A DNA stretch of 64,000 nucleotides from Escherichia phage vB_Eco_BCPEco_001. The notes under the pieces are model-generated. The model worked only from the letters and a program-made list of their open reading frames with translations, had not been told where the DNA came from and did no database searches. The stretch lies in sequence record PV295200.1; one strand, 5' to 3'. Shown in pieces: positions 20,308-62,557 of this stretch. A program made the translations under genes and the position numbers. The stretch's first letter is position 1. The number at the start of each line of letters is the position of its first letter.

Positions 20308-20338
20308 ATTTACAAGACCAAAGTAATATGATATTATA
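20308..20338 (+). promoter_or_regulatory. early-type promoter (segD)
   Basis: ATTTAC -35-like, 18-bp spacer, ATATTA -10-like, upstream of segD ATG 20367. Confidence 0.4.
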
Positions 20339-20366
20339 TTCATATACAAATGGAGTAGTGTTTAAA

Positions 20367-21029
20367 ATGAAATATTTAATATATCAAATTACTAATATCA
20401 TCAATGGAAAAATTTACATCGGAGCTCATGCTACTCTTGACGAAAACGATGGTTATATGGGTTCTGGCGTAAACATCAAAAAATCCATCAAAAAATATGG
20501 TATTCATAACTTTAAAAAAGAAATTCTTTATTCTTTCTCCTCATCTGAGGAGATGTATAAAATGGAAGCTTTACTAGTCAATGAGGAATTCGTTATGAGA
20601 ACTGATACTTATAATGCTGCTATTGGTGGTAGAGGAAATCCAGTTATAGTTCATTTGCAAGATCCTTCATATCGTAATATGTTATCAATGCGAACAAAAG
20701 AAGGAATGACTGCGGAAGCTAAACGAAAAATATCAAAGGCAAAAACAGGCGTTAAGCAATCTGATGAAACTATTACGAAGCGAGTTAAAGGGCGCAATGA
20801 ATATTATAAAACACATGTTCATCCACGAAAAAATAAACCTATATCGATTTCACATCGTAAAGCTATTTCTGAAAAACTTGGTGGTATTAAAAAATTTATT
20901 CCAATATGTATAAAGGGCGTTAAATTTGATAATCCTGATTACGCAGCGGAGCATTTTAAAGTTAGTCCTAAAACTATTCGCAATTGGATAAATGCGGATG
21001 ATATGCCTGATTGCTATCGTATAAAATAG
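20367..21029 (+). CDS. segD: GIY-YIG homing endonuclease, SegD-like
   Basis: N-terminal KYLIYQITNIINGKIYIGAH...DGYMGSG GIY-YIG motif; located between 23 and 24 on opposite strand as T4 segD; start taken at ATG 20367 with GGAG SD. Confidence 0.8.
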   Translation: MKYLIYQITNIINGKIYIGAHATLDENDGYMGSGVNIKKSIKKYGIHNFKKEILYSFSSSEEMYKMEALLVNEEFVMRTDTYNAAIGGRGNPVIVHLQDPSYRNMLSMRTKEGMTAEAKRKISKAKTGVKQSDETITKRVKGRNEYYKTHVHPRKNKPISISHRKAISEKLGGIKKFIPICIKGVKFDNPDYAAEHFKVSPKTIRNWINADDMPDCYRIK

Positions 21030-32254: not shown

Positions 32255-34765
<2,511 letters not shown>

Positions 34766-47289: not shown

Positions 47290-47583
47290 CTATTTAATGA
47301 ATACTTTAGATGATGCCTGAGCCACAGTATCACCACATGATATTGGATCAGCCATTTGAACAGCTTTCTTTCCAGTGACATATACCTTAGAAGTTCTGGG
47401 TTGTGTCACTCCGCCATGTGTTTCATATGGCTTTTTAATTTCTGTATGTTCTGTAATTGGATCGCCTTCTACTAGAACAGCAATTCCTCCAGTGAATACT
47501 TTACTTTGCGTAGCATTCACAACTGTTGGAGGCCACGCTTCATGGCCAGCAGTAACACACTTATCATAACTCAATCCTGACAT
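47290..47583 (-). CDS. 5.4: PAAR-like baseplate spike tip gp5.4
   Basis: 97 aa, PAAR-type small beta protein, position between 5 block and 6. Confidence 0.85.
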
Positions 47584-48167
47584 TTATAATACCCCGCTTT
47601 AACTCGCCCCTTTAAGGTACTATAATTTATATTAAGAGCTTTAGCTGCGATTTTAATACTTTTATATAAAACGCCGTTGATAATAACAGATTTAGCATTA
47701 GGGGCTATTTTGCCATACCTTGGGTTATTGGCGCCACACATCTTCAGAGTTTTACCTCTAGGCCCTCTAGGCCCTCTTTTTCTAGACGATTTAATGCTAA
47801 TTTTCAATCTAGTTTCACGCGAATGAGATTTACCGTAAAATCCATTTTTAGCACCCGCTGTGTTATGTTTTGGGAAGCCACCGATACCGCCTAGTTTCAT
47901 ATTATAAGTTTTCTTAGATTTAACAAATTCCTCTGTGACTATTTCTGCCTCTGCGTCATACATAGCTTTTTCAGATTCAAAGAATTTTATAATATGCTTA
48001 TAAAAATTATCTATGCCATATTTTTTAATGGCATTTTTAATGGCAACGCCAGAACCCATATACCCATCATCCAAATTTGAAGTTTTGTGGACGCCTACAT
48101 AAATTTTTCCTGTTGTTTTATTAGTTATTGAATACAAATAAAAATATTTATGGTCTTGCATAGGCAT
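47571..48167 (-). CDS. segC: GIY-YIG homing endonuclease, SegC-like
   Basis: N-terminal [20 protein letters not shown]...DGYMGSG motif; overlaps both flanking genes. Confidence 0.8.
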
Positions 48168-54472: not shown

Positions 54473-54730
54473 ATGAAAACTTTCAAAGAGTTTGCTACAA
54501 AAACTACTATCACTGAATCTTCCCACGGTATGGAAGTAAAGCTTGGAATGGCTTTAGCTGAAGCTGAGCGTCTTTTCTCTCGTATTAAAGAACTTGCTGC
54601 TGCGGTCGATCCTTCATCTTTTAAAGGAGACCAAACTAAAGTTAAAGCACTTTTAGCATTATGCTCCGATGCAGGAGAAATTGCTAAAAATGGTTCTAAG
54701 ATGAAGAAACGATTAGAAGATTTAAAATAA
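54473..54730 (+). CDS. internal protein (Ip) candidate with capsid targeting sequence
   Basis: N-terminus MKTFKEFATK resembles T4 CTS MKTYQEFIAE; small basic protein with own early promoter, in ipI locus position. Confidence 0.7.
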   Translation: MKTFKEFATKTTITESSHGMEVKLGMALAEAERLFSRIKELAAAVDPSSFKGDQTKVKALLALCSDAGEIAKNGSKMKKRLEDLK

Positions 54731-54732
54731 TT

Positions 54733-54762
54733 TCACAAAGTTGTTTACATAGGGTTTTAGTT
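54733..54762 (+). promoter_or_regulatory. early promoter within stem-loop cassette (second ip gene)
   Basis: GTTTAC, 18-bp spacer, TACTAT; inverted repeat ATAGGG...CCCTAT. Confidence 0.65.
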
Positions 54763-54806
54763 GTGATACTATTACCCTATCAAAACAAAACCAAATGGAA
54801 ATCAAA

Positions 54807-55040
54807 ATGAAAACTTTCAAAGAGTTTATCGCTGAAACTGCTGATGTAAAAGTTGAGTTTATTTACACTGGCAAGAAAGATAAAATGGGTGAAATGCCTC
54901 ATGGAGTTCTTCGTGATGCATTAGATAATTTCGGTCAACTCGCCGCAGAAGATTACGGTGATAAAATTGTTGTTACTGGTCCTGCTGCAGTTATTGAAAA
55001 ATGGGCAGCAGAAAATAAATCAATTTTTCGTAAAAAATAA
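54807..55040 (+). CDS. internal protein (Ip) candidate with capsid targeting sequence
   Basis: Start taken at ATG 54807 giving MKTFKEFIAE (near-exact CTS); own early promoter. Confidence 0.7.
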   Translation: MKTFKEFIAETADVKVEFIYTGKKDKMGEMPHGVLRDALDNFGQLAAEDYGDKIVVTGPAAVIEKWAAENKSIFRKK

Positions 55041-55098: not shown

Positions 55099-55284
55099 AT
55101 GAAACGTTGTGAATTAATTCGAAATGTTGCTATTGCAATTTCTGCTTCTGCTTTCAGTTTTTCAATGTTTGTTGGATTTATATGCGGATTATTAACTACA
55201 GCAGAAAATGTGTTTTCACTTGTAGTAGCATTTTTAATTGGTTTAATCGCTATTGTTACGGATAAAATTTCTAAAGGTGAATAA
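55099..55284 (+). CDS. small hydrophobic membrane protein (61 aa)
   Basis: ATG 55099 with GAGGAG SD and early promoter; hydrophobic segments; the longer track ORF from 54958 overlaps the promoter and is likely spurious. Confidence 0.5.
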   Translation: MKRCELIRNVAIAISASAFSFSMFVGFICGLLTTAENVFSLVVAFLIGLIAIVTDKISKGE

Positions 55285-55682
55285 TGAACGTTGAATATTA
55301 TGTATATGCGGATTACGAAAATAATCCGTCTAAAGATGAAGATAATCGTTTAGGTGTAGATGCTTTCGATTGCCCTGCAGCGGCATGGCAATGGGTTGAA
55401 AGAACCGATATTCCTTACCGTTATATTGAAGTGGTTGACCACGCAGGAAACAAGTATCCTAAGGAAGCATATGTTCCTTCCGTGAAGGTAAATTTCCTTT
55501 TGTTTGCAGGTGATAATTATTATCCACGTGGTGGGTATACCGATTTAATCGCTAAAGCATTCTCTGAAGATGAACTCCGTGACATTATCAAAGAAAATGA
55601 AAACAAACCGATGGGTTCTAATCGCTTTGACTGGTGGCAAATCGTAAATGCTCATACTCATGCTATTGTTGATAGAGGTTGA
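55284..55682 (+). CDS. hypothetical protein (132 aa)
   Basis: ORF with TAATG coupling to upstream gene. Confidence 0.5.
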   Translation: MNVEYYVYADYENNPSKDEDNRLGVDAFDCPAAAWQWVERTDIPYRYIEVVDHAGNKYPKEAYVPSVKVNFLLFAGDNYYPRGGYTDLIAKAFSEDELRDIIKENENKPMGSNRFDWWQIVNAHTHAIVDRG

Positions 55683-55972
55683 TAATGATTCTTTATGCTA
55701 AAGTATCATCCATTGAAAATGGATATAAATATGATCAAGAAGCAGCTAAAGCCTTGATTGATGATTATGGCATTTTAACCTGTTTTGAAGTTGAAAAGGT
55801 TTACATTGACCGTTCATCTTCTCAAGTTAAATTAGTGAAGGAAGACCGTAAATTTAATACAGTAAATTTTGATTTCTTTATTGAAACGGAAAAAGGTCCT
55901 CTTGAATATAATATTTTCAAGAATCCTTTGGGTCTTGAATGTATCGTAAATACGTATTATCATAAATGGTAA
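55679..55972 (+). CDS. hypothetical protein (97 aa)
   Basis: ORF overlapping upstream stop. Confidence 0.5.
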   Translation: MIMILYAKVSSIENGYKYDQEAAKALIDDYGILTCFEVEKVYIDRSSSQVKLVKEDRKFNTVNFDFFIETEKGPLEYNIFKNPLGLECIVNTYYHKW

Positions 55973-56069
55973 ATATGCTTTAAGAATTATTTGTTATTAT
56001 TAACTCATACCGCACTGATTAATACCCTCTATCATCAAGGGTTCTTGTTAGAGAGCCTTTGTTAATAAT

Positions 56070-56142
56070 TGGGAATTAGCCAAGTTGGTAAGGCATAGCA
56101 CTTTGACTGCTAGATGCAAAGGTTCGAGTCCTTTATTCCCAG
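56070..56142 (+). tRNA. tRNA-Gln (anticodon UUG)
   Basis: Cloverleaf: acceptor TGGGAAT/ATTCCCA, anticodon loop CTTTGAC, T-loop TTCGAGT. Confidence 0.85.
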
Positions 56143-56143
56143 C

Positions 56144-56230
56144 GCGAGAATGGTCAAATTGGTAAAGACACAGCACTTAAAATGCTGCGGAATGATTTCC
56201 TTGTGGGTTCGAGTCCCACTTCTCGTACCA
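56144..56230 (+). tRNA. tRNA-Leu (anticodon UAA), long variable arm, CCA encoded
   Basis: Acceptor GCGAGAA/TTCTCGT, anticodon loop CTTAAAA, T-loop GGTTCGAGTCC, 3' ACCA. Confidence 0.85.
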
Positions 56231-56236
56231 AAGTTT

Positions 56237-56308
<72 letters not shown>

Positions 56309-56320
56309 AAATTTAATTTA

Positions 56321-56394
56321 CTTCGTGTAGCTCAGTTTGGTAGAGCGTCTGCTTTGGGAGCAGAATGTCGCAGGTTCAAATCCTGCCGCGGAGA
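56321..56394 (+). tRNA. tRNA-Pro (anticodon UGG)
   Basis: Anticodon stem-loop TCTGC-TTTGGGA-GCAGA, T-arm GCAGGTTCAAATCCTGC; acceptor with two G-U pairs. Confidence 0.8.
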
Positions 56395-56396
56395 CT

Positions 56397-56483
56397 GGAG
56401 GCGTGGCAGAGTGGTTTAATGCACCGGTCTTGAAAACCGGCAGTCGCTCCGGCGACTCATAGGTTCAAATCCTATCGCCTCCG
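56397..56483 (+). tRNA. tRNA-Ser (anticodon UGA), long variable arm
   Basis: Acceptor GGAGGCG/CGCCTCC, anticodon loop CTTGAAA, T-arm TAGGTTCAAATCCTA. Confidence 0.85.
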
Positions 56484-56490
56484 TAATTTC

Positions 56491-56563
56491 GCTGATTTAG
56501 CTCAGTAGGTAGAGCAACTCACTTGTAATGAGAAGGTCGGCGGTTCGATTCCGTCAATCAGCA
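56491..56563 (+). tRNA. tRNA-Thr (anticodon UGU)
   Basis: Acceptor GCTGATT/AATCAGC, anticodon loop CTTGTAA, T-arm GGCGGTTCGATTCCGTC. Confidence 0.85.
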
Positions 56564-56569
56564 TATCAA

Positions 56570-56641
56570 GGCCCTGTAGCTGGAAGGTTCAAGCAAGCGA
56601 CTCATAATCGCCAGATGGTGGTTCAATTCCACCCAGGGCCA
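56570..56641 (+). tRNA. tRNA-Ile (anticodon CAU, presumably lysidine-modified) or tRNA-Met
   Basis: Acceptor GGCCCTG/CAGGGCC, anticodon loop CTCATAA; T4 tRNA-Ile is known to carry a CAU anticodon. Confidence 0.8.
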
Positions 56642-56682
56642 TATTTTGAGAACATAAATACTCTTAGAAATAGGAGATATTT

Positions 56683-57348
56683 ATGTTCTATTACATTTAT
56701 AAAATAACAAATAAAATTAATAATAAAATCTATATAGGCGCTCATTCTACCGAAAATTTAGATGATGGATATATGGGTTCTGGTAAATTATTAAAAAGAG
56801 CCCAAGATAAGTATGGTATAGAAAATTTTTCTAAAGAAATATTAGAGTATTTTGACGATAAAACCTCTATGTTTGAGTCAGAAAAGAATATTGTGGCTGA
56901 AGAGTTTTTAAAGCGCCCTGATGTTTATAATTTGAAATTAGGTGGTGAAGGTGGTTGGGACCATTTAAACACTAAAGAATATTTGGATAAAAAGAAAGAA
57001 GCTTCCTTAAAAGGAGCTGCCGCTTTTAAAACCAGATTTGAGAACGACCCAGACCTTAAAGAAAAATATCGTAAAATGGGTTCAGAAAGGTTTAAACAGC
57101 TTTGGGATAATCCTAAGTATAGAGAGAAATTTTTAAATACTAAATCTTTCTTGGGTAAGACCCATACTCCTGAAACTATTAATAAAATGAAAGAATCTCA
57201 CGCCAGAAATAAACACCAACAAGGTGAAAAGAATTCCCAATTTGGTATGATGTGGATTCATTCATTAGATGAAAAAGTTTCTAAACGTATTAAGAAAACT
57301 GACCCAATTCCAGAAGGATGGTTTAAAGGTCGAAAAATGAAATTTTAA
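56683..57348 (+). CDS. segB: GIY-YIG homing endonuclease, SegB-like
   Basis: 221 aa, N-terminal YYIYKITNKINNKIYIGAH...DGYMGSG motif; embedded in tRNA cluster as T4 segB. Confidence 0.85.
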   Translation: MFYYIYKITNKINNKIYIGAHSTENLDDGYMGSGKLLKRAQDKYGIENFSKEILEYFDDKTSMFESEKNIVAEEFLKRPDVYNLKLGGEGGWDHLNTKEYLDKKKEASLKGAAAFKTRFENDPDLKEKYRKMGSERFKQLWDNPKYREKFLNTKSFLGKTHTPETINKMKESHARNKHQQGEKNSQFGMMWIHSLDEKVSKRIKKTDPIPEGWFKGRKMKF

Positions 57349-57351
57349 TTA

Positions 57352-57428
<77 letters not shown>

Positions 57429-57775
57429 AACAAGAAGCCGGGTCGCTACCGGCAAGTCGTCGGACTGATGTTCCCTGAGTAAGGACTGGCATTAATAAAT
57501 CTTTATGTTTTGTTAATGCCCCCTTATATCACAGCAGAAACGGCGCACCGAATTATCGATTCGAGGAAATATCTTTGCCGTAAGCCGAGTAGCGTTTTTG
57601 ACGGAACGTTCGGATATGGTCAAGATATGGCCTTTTAAAAATATTGAGTAGCGTCAACTGCTTAATAACCGGGTTCGAATCCCGGCGTTTCGTACAAACA
57701 CTTGCCTTAGCAGGTGGAACCCCGACAAGGTTGCCGCAAGGCTCAGTCCCGACCGAAAGGTTGGGGCTTTTTAGT
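57429..57775 (+). ncRNA. structured non-coding region, likely T4-type small stable RNAs (species 1/2, RNA C/D); boundaries approximate
   Basis: About 350 nt without an ORF directly after tRNA-Arg, several strong hairpins including a tRNA-like T-arm CCGGGTTCGAATCCCGG, ending in a terminator. Confidence 0.45.
57748..57772 (+). terminator. terminator ending tRNA/stable RNA transcription unit
   Basis: CCCGACC-GAAA-GGTTGGGG hairpin followed by CTTTTT. Confidence 0.6.
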
Positions 57776-57905
57776 ATCTAGGCCTTTCCGGGCCTCTCTA
57801 GGCATCATTTAGTTTATACCCTTTATAATATATTATCCTACCTTTTAATTGCCCCTCCTGACCCTAGAATTCCCTAAAACTTTTTAAAAATTTTTTCACA
57901 AAACT

Positions 57906-57935
57906 GTTTACAAGACTGTTCTTCTATGGTACTAT
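57906..57935 (+). promoter_or_regulatory. early promoter
   Basis: GTTTAC, 18-bp spacer, TACTAT upstream of ORF 57967. Confidence 0.6.
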
Positions 57936-57966
57936 ACAACTATCAACTACTGATACAGAAAACAAC

Positions 57967-58242
57967 TTGGAGAACGAAATGGATAATTACGGCGAACTGT
58001 TCAACTTCTTTATGAAATGTGTTTCAGAAGATTTCGGTCGTACAGTGAATGATATTAAAGTTATCGGTCCTGACCATCCGATGTTTGAAACTTACGCAGT
58101 AATGGGGAATGAAGATGGTCAGTGGTATACTGTAAAGGTTGTGATTAACATGTTCACTGCTGAAAGTTATGTTAAACTGTCTTCTAAAGTTTACCATGAT
58201 AACGACGAAATCGCAGAAGAATATTTCAATAATATGAAATAA
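57967..58242 (+). CDS. hypothetical protein (91 aa)
   Basis: ORF with early promoter and SD. Confidence 0.5.
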   Translation: MENEMDNYGELFNFFMKCVSEDFGRTVNDIKVIGPDHPMFETYAVMGNEDGQWYTVKVVINMFTAESYVKLSSKVYHDNDEIAEEYFNNMK

Positions 58243-58272
58243 GTTTACATAGGCTCATGATTGAGATATTAT
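58243..58272 (+). promoter_or_regulatory. early promoter within stem-loop
   Basis: GTTTAC, spacer, TATTAT; inverted repeat GGCTCAT...ATGAGCC. Confidence 0.6.
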
Positions 58273-58297
58273 GAGCCCATAATTTGAGGAGAACATT

Positions 58298-58633
58298 ATG
58301 AAACGTAACTTTAGTAAAGCTTTTTGTAATCGAAATTATTATCCTGAAGAGCTTTTTGAATCTAAGGAATTTAAAGAGTTTAACGAACGTTCTCAAAACA
58401 TGCCTGTACAATGGGTATTGGATTATGCTAACCGTATCTTTGAAGGCGTGCGGGATATTTGTCCTGATGATGAAGCTCCTTATTTTAAAAAGGCTTGGGA
58501 ACTTGCTAACCAAGCATATATCAATGCTTTAGAATCTTCTAAAGGCACTGACGATGATTTTACTTTATTGGCTATCAATGATGCCGTTATCGAGGCCATC
58601 GACGTCTTTATCGATGAGCTAGATGAAGAATAA
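58298..58633 (+). CDS. hypothetical acidic protein (111 aa)
   Basis: ORF with early promoter, GAGGAG SD, acidic C-terminus. Confidence 0.5.
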   Translation: MKRNFSKAFCNRNYYPEELFESKEFKEFNERSQNMPVQWVLDYANRIFEGVRDICPDDEAPYFKKAWELANQAYINALESSKGTDDDFTLLAINDAVIEAIDVFIDELDEE

Positions 58634-62140: not shown

Positions 62141-62557
62141 ATGACTCGTATTAATTTGACTTTAGTATCTGAACTTGCTGATCAACATTTAATCGCAGAA
62201 TACCGTGAATTGCCGCGTGTTTTTGGTATAGTTCGTAAGCATGTGGCAAACGGTAAGCGCGTTAAAGATTTTAAAATATCTTCTAAATTTATTTTAGGTT
62301 CTGGTCATGTTACTTTCTTTTACGATAAGTTAGAATTTTTGCGAAAGCGTCAATCGGACATTATAACGGAATGCTTAAAACGCGGGTTCAGTATAAAAGA
62401 TACTGAAGTTCCTGACATCAGCGATATTCCAGCAGAATGGAAAAATGATTATAACCCATGCAAATCGGCTATTAAATTGAGTCAACAACGACTCGATGAA
62501 AAAATTTTAATGAAGCCACACTGGTATAAATACTACGGCAAAAATATTTACATTTAA
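62141..62557 (+). CDS. denV: endonuclease V, pyrimidine dimer DNA glycosylase
   Basis: 138 aa, [28 protein letters not shown]...WYKYYGK matches recalled T4 EndoV; early promoter upstream. Confidence 0.9.

Follow-up and report, generated by a model that had tools for sequence, protein, structure and literature searches.

A segB homing endonuclease gene within the tRNA gene cluster of a T4-like Escherichia phage

The window analyzed here, a 64,000-nucleotide (64-kb) stretch of Escherichia phage vB_Eco_BCPEco_001 (PV295200.1), comes from a phage of the genus Tequatrovirus (T4-like) and carries a tRNA gene cluster that is split by a single protein-coding gene (Table 1). The seven tRNA genes upstream of this gene form a tight array (56070-56641), and an eighth, tRNA-Arg, lies directly downstream, followed by homologues of the two T4 stable RNA genes rnaD and rnaC. 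A sequence-only reading of the window had placed these eight tRNA genes, and both ARAGORN and Rfam bore out their coordinates. ARAGORN detected eight tRNA genes in total across the 64-kb window, all on the plus strand, and the Rfam tRNA model matched all 8 with scores of 60-73 bits (gathering score, 29). A 2-kb region around segB matches Shigella phage SHFML-11, also a Tequatrovirus, at 100% identity, and 944 phage records match the region; despite this local identity, the window and the SHFML-11 genome are not collinear overall.

Table 1. Positions of the features of the tRNA cluster and of the other homing endonuclease genes in the 64-kb window
Feature	Position	Strand	Basis or remark
Freestanding GIY-YIG gene, segD slot, between genes 24 and 23	20328-21029	+	SegE_GIY-YIG and GIY-YIG, both under Pfam cut-offs
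Freestanding HNH gene, between genes 13 and 14	33027-33839	-	Pfam HNH_4, 25.6 bits, cut-off 22
Freestanding GIY-YIG gene, segC slot, adjoining gene 5.1	47571-48167	-	SegE_GIY-YIG and NUMOD3 over Pfam cut-offs
Candidate middle-promoter element, MotA-box-like TGCTTTA	55976-55982	+	Read from sequence
Candidate middle-promoter element, TATTAT	55995-56000	+	Read from sequence
tRNA-Gln(TTG)	56070-56143	+	ARAGORN, Rfam
tRNA-Leu(TAA)	56144-56230	+	ARAGORN, Rfam
tRNA-Gly(TCC)	56237-56308	+	ARAGORN, Rfam
tRNA-Pro(TGG)	56321-56395	+	ARAGORN, Rfam
tRNA-Ser(TGA)	56396-56484	+	ARAGORN, Rfam
tRNA-Thr(TGT)	56491-56563	+	ARAGORN, Rfam
CAT-anticodon tRNA, Ile2-type	56570-56641	+	ARAGORN, Rfam
Predicted RNA hairpin over segB translation start	56649-56689	+	RNA fold
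segB, freestanding GIY-YIG homing endonuclease gene, 221 aa, ATG start	56683-57348	+	Pfam, PHROG, identity to T4 SegB
tRNA-Arg(TCT)	57352-57428	+	ARAGORN; Rfam, 73 bits; begins 3 nt past segB stop codon
T4 rnaD homologue (species 2 stable RNA)	57430-57549	+	87% identity to T4 rnaD
T4 rnaC homologue (species 1 stable RNA)	57556-57694	+	98% identity to T4 rnaC
Terminator-like GC-rich hairpin then T-run, end of cluster transcript	57745-57773	+	Consensus scan

The last tRNA gene before segB was labeled "Met" by ARAGORN, which takes its CAT anticodon literally, and the T2L record carries the same assignment. Matches to this gene were found in 5,423 of 5,426 E. coli genomes, and its closest E. coli relatives, sampled at 25 rows down the ranking, were annotated as tRNA-Ile in every one of these rows. 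Two E. coli CAT-anticodon tRNA-Ile genes, one adjacent to mug and one prophage-borne, were fetched and aligned to it; all three genes have in common the anticodon stem-loop GCGACTCATAATCGC and the acceptor GGCCC...GGGCC. Within this acceptor, we take C4-G69 and C5-G68 to be TilS identity elements. In addition, the tRNA in this slot is annotated as an ATA-reading tRNA-Ile in BASEL phage records. The likeness to E. coli tRNA-Ile and the BASEL annotation speak against an elongator tRNA-Met, and the gene is best read as an AUA-reading tRNA of the Ile2 type. Given the E. coli matches and the shared stem-loop and acceptor, the "Ile" of the sequence-only reading was a better call than that of ARAGORN.

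The open reading frame in the gap before tRNA-Arg had been proposed from the letters alone to encode a 221-aa GIY-YIG endonuclease, and it is intact and has a Pfam match over the cut-off (GIY-YIG, PF01541; residues 3-70, 25.1 bits, cut-off 22.6). PHROG 314, annotated as "homing endonuclease", also matched the predicted protein (E=5e-48), and a NUMOD3 match fell under the Pfam cut-off. Aligned to T4 SegB (NP_049745), 185 of the 221 residues are identical (84%) over the full length and with no gaps, compared to 81% protein identity to T6 SegB. Together with an identical gene order, this upheld the proposal of a segB-like gene in the same slot as in T4, and the gene carries the segB label in several GenBank relatives. 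The first 60 and the last 41 residues are near-identical to T4 SegB, and residues 61-180, comprising the linker and the presumed DNA-binding part, are only ~72% identical, so the site preference of the window protein could differ from that of T4. Judged by these alignments, the open reading frame is a full-length orthologue of T4 SegB.

As searching the PDB with the SegB sequence returned chance matches only (E > 0.7), a fold search was needed to reach I-TevI, the endonuclease of the T4 td gene. The AlphaFold model, built from a shallow alignment, has a mean pLDDT of 59, with residues 1-80 at pLDDT 73-88 and a low-confidence C-terminal half (pLDDT < 50). Foldseek searching of the PDB with residues 1-80 gave the I-TevI catalytic domain as top matches (1MK0, 1LN0; E=1e-4, probability 1.0), with a TM-score of 0.61 on the target. 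The AlphaFold model and the Foldseek matches agree in giving the predicted N-terminal domain the beta-beta-alpha-beta-alpha catalytic fold of GIY-YIG enzymes. I-TevI shares this fold with SegB and is also reported to have the two-domain layout; it differs in being only 26-28% identical, intron-encoded and targeted to td, whereas SegB is freestanding and targets tRNA genes. Residues Y4-I5-Y6, Y17-I18-G19, E67 and N83 are invariant across seven aligned Seg proteins, and E67 and N83 presumably correspond to E75 and N90 of I-TevI. Mutating Y17 and G19 inactivated T6 SegB (PMC13096335).

Fixed homing endonuclease genes often degenerate, and a truncated 177-aa segB-like gene is present in phage SholemSchwarzbard, at another slot of the cluster. 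A remnant that is inactive or decaying and has lost the ability to cut DNA is nonetheless a very improbable description of the window gene, which is full length and gapless against T4 SegB, keeps all GIY-YIG motif residues, has a regulatory leader that is 100% conserved with T4, and at both its ends is near-identical to an enzyme that is active. Even less credible, to the point of being practically dismissed, is an intron-encoded endonuclease, the reading implied by the GenBank annotation "group I intron endonuclease" on the orthologue in phages G8, BF15 and G2540. Searching positions 55500-58300 permissively against Rfam (E up to 1) returned the tRNAs and weak chance matches, with no group I or group II intron. 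The gene lies between two complete tRNA genes and inside neither, within no intron or intein, and T4 segB is classed as freestanding (PMC2988022). Since no intron is detectable at the locus, the GenBank label is wrong.

The signals around the gene resemble those described for T4. Just upstream of tRNA-Gln, where a T4 middle promoter driving the whole cluster has been placed (PMC2330249), the window contains two candidate middle-promoter elements in a stretch (55976-56000) with 98-100% identity to T4. Transcription in T4 is reported to end after the species I RNA gene (PMC2330249), and a terminator-like hairpin follows the rnaC homologue in the window. As the promoter and terminator scan yielded consensus matches at background frequency, its results were used only where they coincided with published T4 signals. 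Neither the rnaD nor the rnaC homologue matched any Rfam family. The rnaC homologue carries a tRNA-like sequence, GGTTCGAATCC, at 57672-57682.

Between the CAT-anticodon tRNA and segB lies a 41-nt leader with 100% identity to T4. RNA folding predicted a hairpin over the segB translation start with a free energy of -19.4 kcal/mol (z = -5.9), and 0 of 200 shuffled sequences folded as well. Its 3' arm holds the segB Shine-Dalgarno sequence GGAG (56673-56676) and the start codon (56683-56685), and its 5' arm holds the late-promoter-like sequence CATAAATA (56653-56660). The same hairpin has been proposed for T4 segB at positions 71912-71952, and this style of regulation, with a hairpin over the ribosome-binding site, is also reported for I-TevI (PMC2330249; PMC2988022). 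By analogy with the T4 literature, segB is probably transcribed as part of a long tRNA precursor that runs from the candidate promoter upstream of tRNA-Gln to the terminator after rnaC, with its translation probably held low by a hairpin that buries the ribosome-binding site and start codon. The processing of tRNAs on both sides, with tRNA-Ile 41 nt upstream and tRNA-Arg 3 nt downstream, would trim the segB message, and because the stop codon lies so close to tRNA-Arg, 5' processing of this tRNA would cleave the transcript at the very end of the message.

In total, the window had been credited with four freestanding homing endonuclease genes, three GIY-YIG and one HNH, and this count stood up to Pfam and BLASTP searches. 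The N-terminal 90 residues of the protein in the segD slot are 54% identical to SegB, and the protein in the segC slot, which has an I-TevI DNA-binding domain match just under the Pfam cut-off, shares 53% identity with SegB over 96 residues; among themselves, the three GIY-YIG proteins show 53-55% identity over ~90 N-terminal residues. The HNH gene is annotated as "homing endonuclease" in relatives and is missing from SHFML-11, and its region matches Salmonella phage vB_Sen_BCPSen_003 at 100% identity. BLASTP comparison of all window open reading frames of at least 45 aa to the four endonucleases yielded no further paralogues. A further "endonuclease" at 62141-62557 was ruled out as a fifth homing enzyme, being the pyrimidine-dimer glycosylase DenV.

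Comparison to related phages shows that segB is polymorphic for presence and absence at this homologous locus. Full-length segB was found in 130 phage records, 54 of them at 95% DNA identity or more (the window allele) and the rest at ~80-90% (the T4/T6 type), and the Gln-Leu-Gly-Pro-Ser subcluster was found in 496 phage records. Seven empty (segB-less) clusters were inspected (Sf24, T2L, PYPS2T, G50, FelixPlatter, Paracelsus and HP3), and in all of them the segB slot is occupied by tRNA-Tyr and tRNA-Asn. After Gln-Leu-Gly, the order is Pro-Ser-Thr-CAT-Tyr-Asn-Arg in Sf24 and PYPS2T, and Pro-Ser-Thr-CAT-Tyr-Asn-His-Arg in G50, FelixPlatter, Paracelsus and HP3; T2L, which has no tRNA-Thr, continues with Pro-Ser, the open reading frame trna.1 and CAT-Tyr-Asn-Arg. 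The empty alleles of T2L (AJ880101) and Sf24 share with the window the Gln-Leu-Gly-Pro-Ser subcluster, rnaD and rnaC, and clusters of this type differ from the window in having tRNA-Tyr and tRNA-Asn, sometimes with tRNA-His and a 116-aa open reading frame, in place of segB.

Two other arrangements were seen among the relatives. In T6, where Gln-Leu-Gly is followed by Thr-CAT-Tyr-segB-Arg, the 221-aa SegB orthologue lies directly upstream of tRNA-Arg as in the window; unlike in the window, tRNA-Tyr adjoins segB upstream, tRNA-Pro and tRNA-Ser are missing, the leader is unrelated, and the CAT-anticodon and tRNA-Arg alleles are of the T4 type. In KIT03 and SholemSchwarzbard, a segB-like gene stands at the tRNA-Pro slot. 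The KIT03-type gene resembles the window segB in its catalytic domain (~83% identical) and its place inside a tRNA cluster, but it replaces tRNA-Pro, has an unrelated C-terminal (DNA-binding) half, and coexists with tRNA-Asn.

T4 itself (NC_000866) has the same gene content as the window, with seven tRNAs, segB (666 nt), tRNA-Arg, rnaD and rnaC followed by e.8. The DNA of the two phages is 92-100% identical over most of the region, with four drops: tRNA-Pro (83% identity), the CAT-anticodon tRNA (64% to T4 tRNA-Ile), the middle of segB (only 62-78%) and tRNA-Arg (53%, effectively a different gene). The window also differs from T4 in that its tRNA-Gly and tRNA-Thr have no encoded CCA, and its gap before tRNA-Arg is 1 nt shorter. 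These differences in the flanking tRNA alleles and in mid-segB refine the earlier comparison to T4, which had also mentioned neither the rnaD and rnaC homologues nor the leader hairpin.

The breakpoints of identity with T4 are sharp. Identity starts right after the discriminator base of the CAT-anticodon tRNA and is lost from the first base of tRNA-Arg onward. The tRNA alleles outside these points are those of phages that lack segB, as the CAT-anticodon tRNA matches the T2L "tRNA-Met" allele at 100% identity and tRNA-Arg matches the Sf24 allele at 99%. On the left, homology to T2L and Sf24 stops at the same discriminator base, at the 3' end of the CAT-anticodon tRNA, a place at which mapping in T2L revealed a minor SegB site (PMC2330249). 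On the right, homology resumes within a few nucleotides of the tRNA-Asn CCAA cut point, just before tRNA-Arg. Relative to the empty alleles, segB and its leader replace exactly the encoded CCA of the CAT-anticodon tRNA, tRNA-Tyr, tRNA-Asn and their spacers. From these junctions, we infer that segB took the place of the Tyr-Asn segment, which lies between two cut positions of SegB.

T4 SegB makes double-strand breaks with 2-nt 3' overhangs, recognizes ~27 bp at the 3' end of tRNA genes, and also cuts DNA containing glucosyl-hydroxymethylcytosine (PMC2330249). Its consensus has the core GGTTCRANTCC in the T-arm, often with CCAR just before the cut, and its preferred target is the tRNA-Asn gene of T2L (PMC2330249). 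In crosses of T4 with T2L, segB was inherited at 94-99.6% and T2L markers were lost (PMC2330249). Both site-specific cleavage and biased inheritance have thus been demonstrated for T4 SegB (PMC2330249), and cleavage has been demonstrated for T6 SegB (PMC13096335).

In order to place the window in this scheme, the core motif and the preferred site were searched for in the sequence. The core motif occurs 7 times in the window versus 0.1 expected by chance, with 6 occurrences in tRNA genes and 1 in the tRNA-like sequence of rnaC. The preferred T2L site, GGTTCGAATCCTATCACGTCCGCCAAA, which was reconstructed by combining AJ880101 with the five differences given in the text (not the figure) of PMC2330249, lies directly before tRNA-Arg in T2L, and its counterpart has the same position in Sf24. 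ARAGORN found no tRNA-Asn gene in the 64-kb window, and neither the T2L nor the Sf24 27-bp tRNA-Asn site was found there at up to 3 mismatches. The empty allele therefore has the preferred site at or near the insertion point and the window lacks it, as befits a homing element.

The cleavage, specificity and homing of the window SegB are inferred here from the T4 and T6 literature. In a mixed infection with a segB-less relative, SegB would cut the tRNA cluster of the relative, preferentially in tRNA-Asn, and recombinational repair would copy segB and neighboring tRNA genes into the broken genome. The gene content, junctions and target sites of the window agree with this homing model of T4 SegB. 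We consider it highly probable that the complete explanation holds, homing mechanism included, and that the gene is segB of a T4-like phage, a freestanding GIY-YIG homing endonuclease gene within the tRNA cluster.

A separate observation concerns the encoded CCA of the tRNA genes. Every tRNA gene of 17 Tequatrovirus clusters was scored for full SegB sites, defined as the core motif together with an encoded CCA followed by a purine; two Mosigvirus loci were left out. The 8 clusters with segB at the T4 position (the window, PP01, SHFML-26, T4, W143, T6, IME537 and OES_C-1) contain 1-2 full sites each, compared to 5-7 in the 9 clusters without it (Sf24, T2L, HP3, PYPS2T, G50, FelixPlatter, Paracelsus, KIT03 and SholemSchwarzbard). 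The encoded CCA is missing from tRNA-Ser in all 6 of the segB-containing clusters that have this tRNA, and CCAG is present in 9 of 9 others. In the window-type allele, the encoded CCA has been lost from tRNA-Gly and tRNA-Thr too, and tRNA-Leu alone keeps both the core and CCAR, making the window the most extreme case seen among the 17 clusters. In the window tRNA-Arg, the otherwise invariant C of the core is broken via a compensated U19-A56 tertiary pair. Reading this unusual T-loop as a segB-specific immunity change is weakened by the presence of the same allele in Sf24, which has no segB.

The absence of CCA from T4 tRNA-Ser is the sole case noted in PMC2330249, and CCA is not mentioned in PMC13096335; the pattern across the 17 clusters, not noted in either of these 2008 and 2026 SegB papers, may be new. 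One tentative explanation, which we think the less likely side of the matter, is that segB-containing clusters have systematically lost the CCAR half of the SegB site from their own tRNA genes, mostly via loss of the encoded CCA, whether through selection for self-protection or as scars of repeated SegB cutting and repair. With a small sample of clusters that are not phylogenetically independent, and with the variants in tight linkage to segB, hitch-hiking explains the pattern as well as self-protection or repair scars do. If the loss is systematic, the tRNAs of segB-containing phages would depend on the host CCA-adding enzyme.

A different account of why segB persists is that it is kept mainly for the benefit of the phage, its breaks seeding tandem amplification of anti-defense genes, whether close by or far off in the genome, and so allowing escape from host immunity. 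The nuclease activity of T6 SegB was required for amplification of tRNA-Tyr and segB under Septu pressure, and SegB activity was required for the amplification in trans of anti-OLD and anti-ToxIN genes in T6 and T4 (PMC13096335). The intact reading frame of the window gene, its conserved catalytic residues, and the wide spread of its allele (the 54 records at 95% DNA identity or more) would fit such a role. However, the pattern of presence and absence and the location of the junctions at cut sites match the prediction for a selfish homing element, and the Septu route is unavailable here; ARAGORN found no tRNA-Tyr gene in the 64-kb window, and T4, which likewise has none, could not escape Septu (PMC13096335). 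A benefit to the phage as the main reason for keeping segB is possible but rather doubtful, and would be a role in addition to homing, not to its exclusion. Because the window lacks tRNA-Tyr, as T4 does, its phage should not escape Septu by the published tRNA-Tyr amplification.

Finally, segB in a tRNA cluster is a textbook element, here in a common allele, and is already known; its homing was published in 2008 (Brok-Volchanskaya et al., PMC2330249) and SegB-driven amplification of anti-defense genes in 2026 (Chihara et al., PMC13096335). With junctions exactly at the ends of tRNA genes, where SegB is reported to cut, this locus cleanly illustrates, in a natural setting, the transfer of a homing endonuclease allele to another tRNA context.

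In order to score recognition sites of SegB, the freestanding GIY-YIG homing endonuclease, across tRNA clusters, the full consensus was taken as the GGTTCRANTCC T-arm core described for T4 (PMC2330249) followed by an encoded CCA and then a purine. Scoring covered 17 Tequatrovirus clusters, namely window 56070-57428 and the loci of relatives L002, L003, L006-L009, L012-L014 and L016-L022. Clusters with segB at the T4 position, between the CAT tRNA and tRNA-Arg, contain one to two full-consensus tRNA genes, compared to five to seven in clusters without it. The encoded CCA of tRNA-Ser is missing in all six segB-containing clusters that have this tRNA gene, whereas the other clusters carry CCAG there (9/9). 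Among the tRNA genes of the window, only tRNA-Leu keeps both the core and the CCA-purine.

The tRNA-Arg(TCT) of the window has the T-loop TTAGAAT, with A at position 56 in place of the near-universal C, and this A replaces the invariant C of the SegB core, disrupting the motif. Its D-loop is AATTGTATA, with U rather than G at position 19, and in the sequence U19 and A56 look like a compensated tertiary pair (U19-A56). The same tRNA-Arg allele is found in Sf24, a phage without segB.

Downstream lie homologues of rnaD and rnaC, T4 stable RNAs for which we know of no function; an Rfam search of this region of the window returned no family for them. Within rnaC of the window is a perfect tRNA-like T-arm, GGTTCGAATCC, that doubles as a SegB core motif. 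At the equivalent of window 57753-57777, an insertion of 533 bp, absent from the window, is present in PP01 (L002 3878-4411) as well as in many further relatives. It is bordered by a repeat of about 25 nt of the terminator-hairpin region and contains a 187-aa open reading frame with no Pfam match.

Features compared in the window and in tRNA-cluster loci of relatives
Feature	Location	Strand	Remark
HNH endonuclease gene	33027-33839	-	about 270 aa; between head-completion genes 13 and 14
ipI slot (T4 internal protein gene)	54473-55040		unrelated small ORFs
trna.3 homologue	55284-55682		
tRNA-Arg(TCT)	57352-57428		
rnaD and rnaC homologues	57430-57694		
segB-like gene, second kind	L008 2146-2796; L009 2745-3278		KIT03-type phages; in place of tRNA-Pro
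segB orthologue	L015 1388-2169		Escherichia phage p000v, Mosigvirus

Outside the tRNA cluster, the ipI slot shares 0-40% DNA identity with T4, compared to 97-99% for the flanking 57B and trna.4; in relatives, the small open reading frames of this slot are of the ip5 and ip6 type. At the DNA level, the trna.3 homologue and its T4 counterpart share only 70% identity, while the neighbours trna.2 and trna.4 reach 97%; the trna.3 region is a further mosaic patch with sharp borders. The HNH gene, at full coverage in 46 of 510 matching records, is lacking in SHFML-11, where a single base lies between genes 13 and 14.

The second kind of segB-like gene, in KIT03-type phages, encodes a catalytic domain about 83% identical to that of SegB but an unrelated C-terminal half, and the SholemSchwarzbard copy is truncated (177 aa). 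In p000v, the segB orthologue (protein 79% identical) adjoins a single CAT tRNA, whereas in the related Mosigvirus ATK47 segB is absent and tRNA-Arg directly follows the CAT tRNA. This suggests that the same segB insertion polymorphism exists in a second genus, Mosigvirus.
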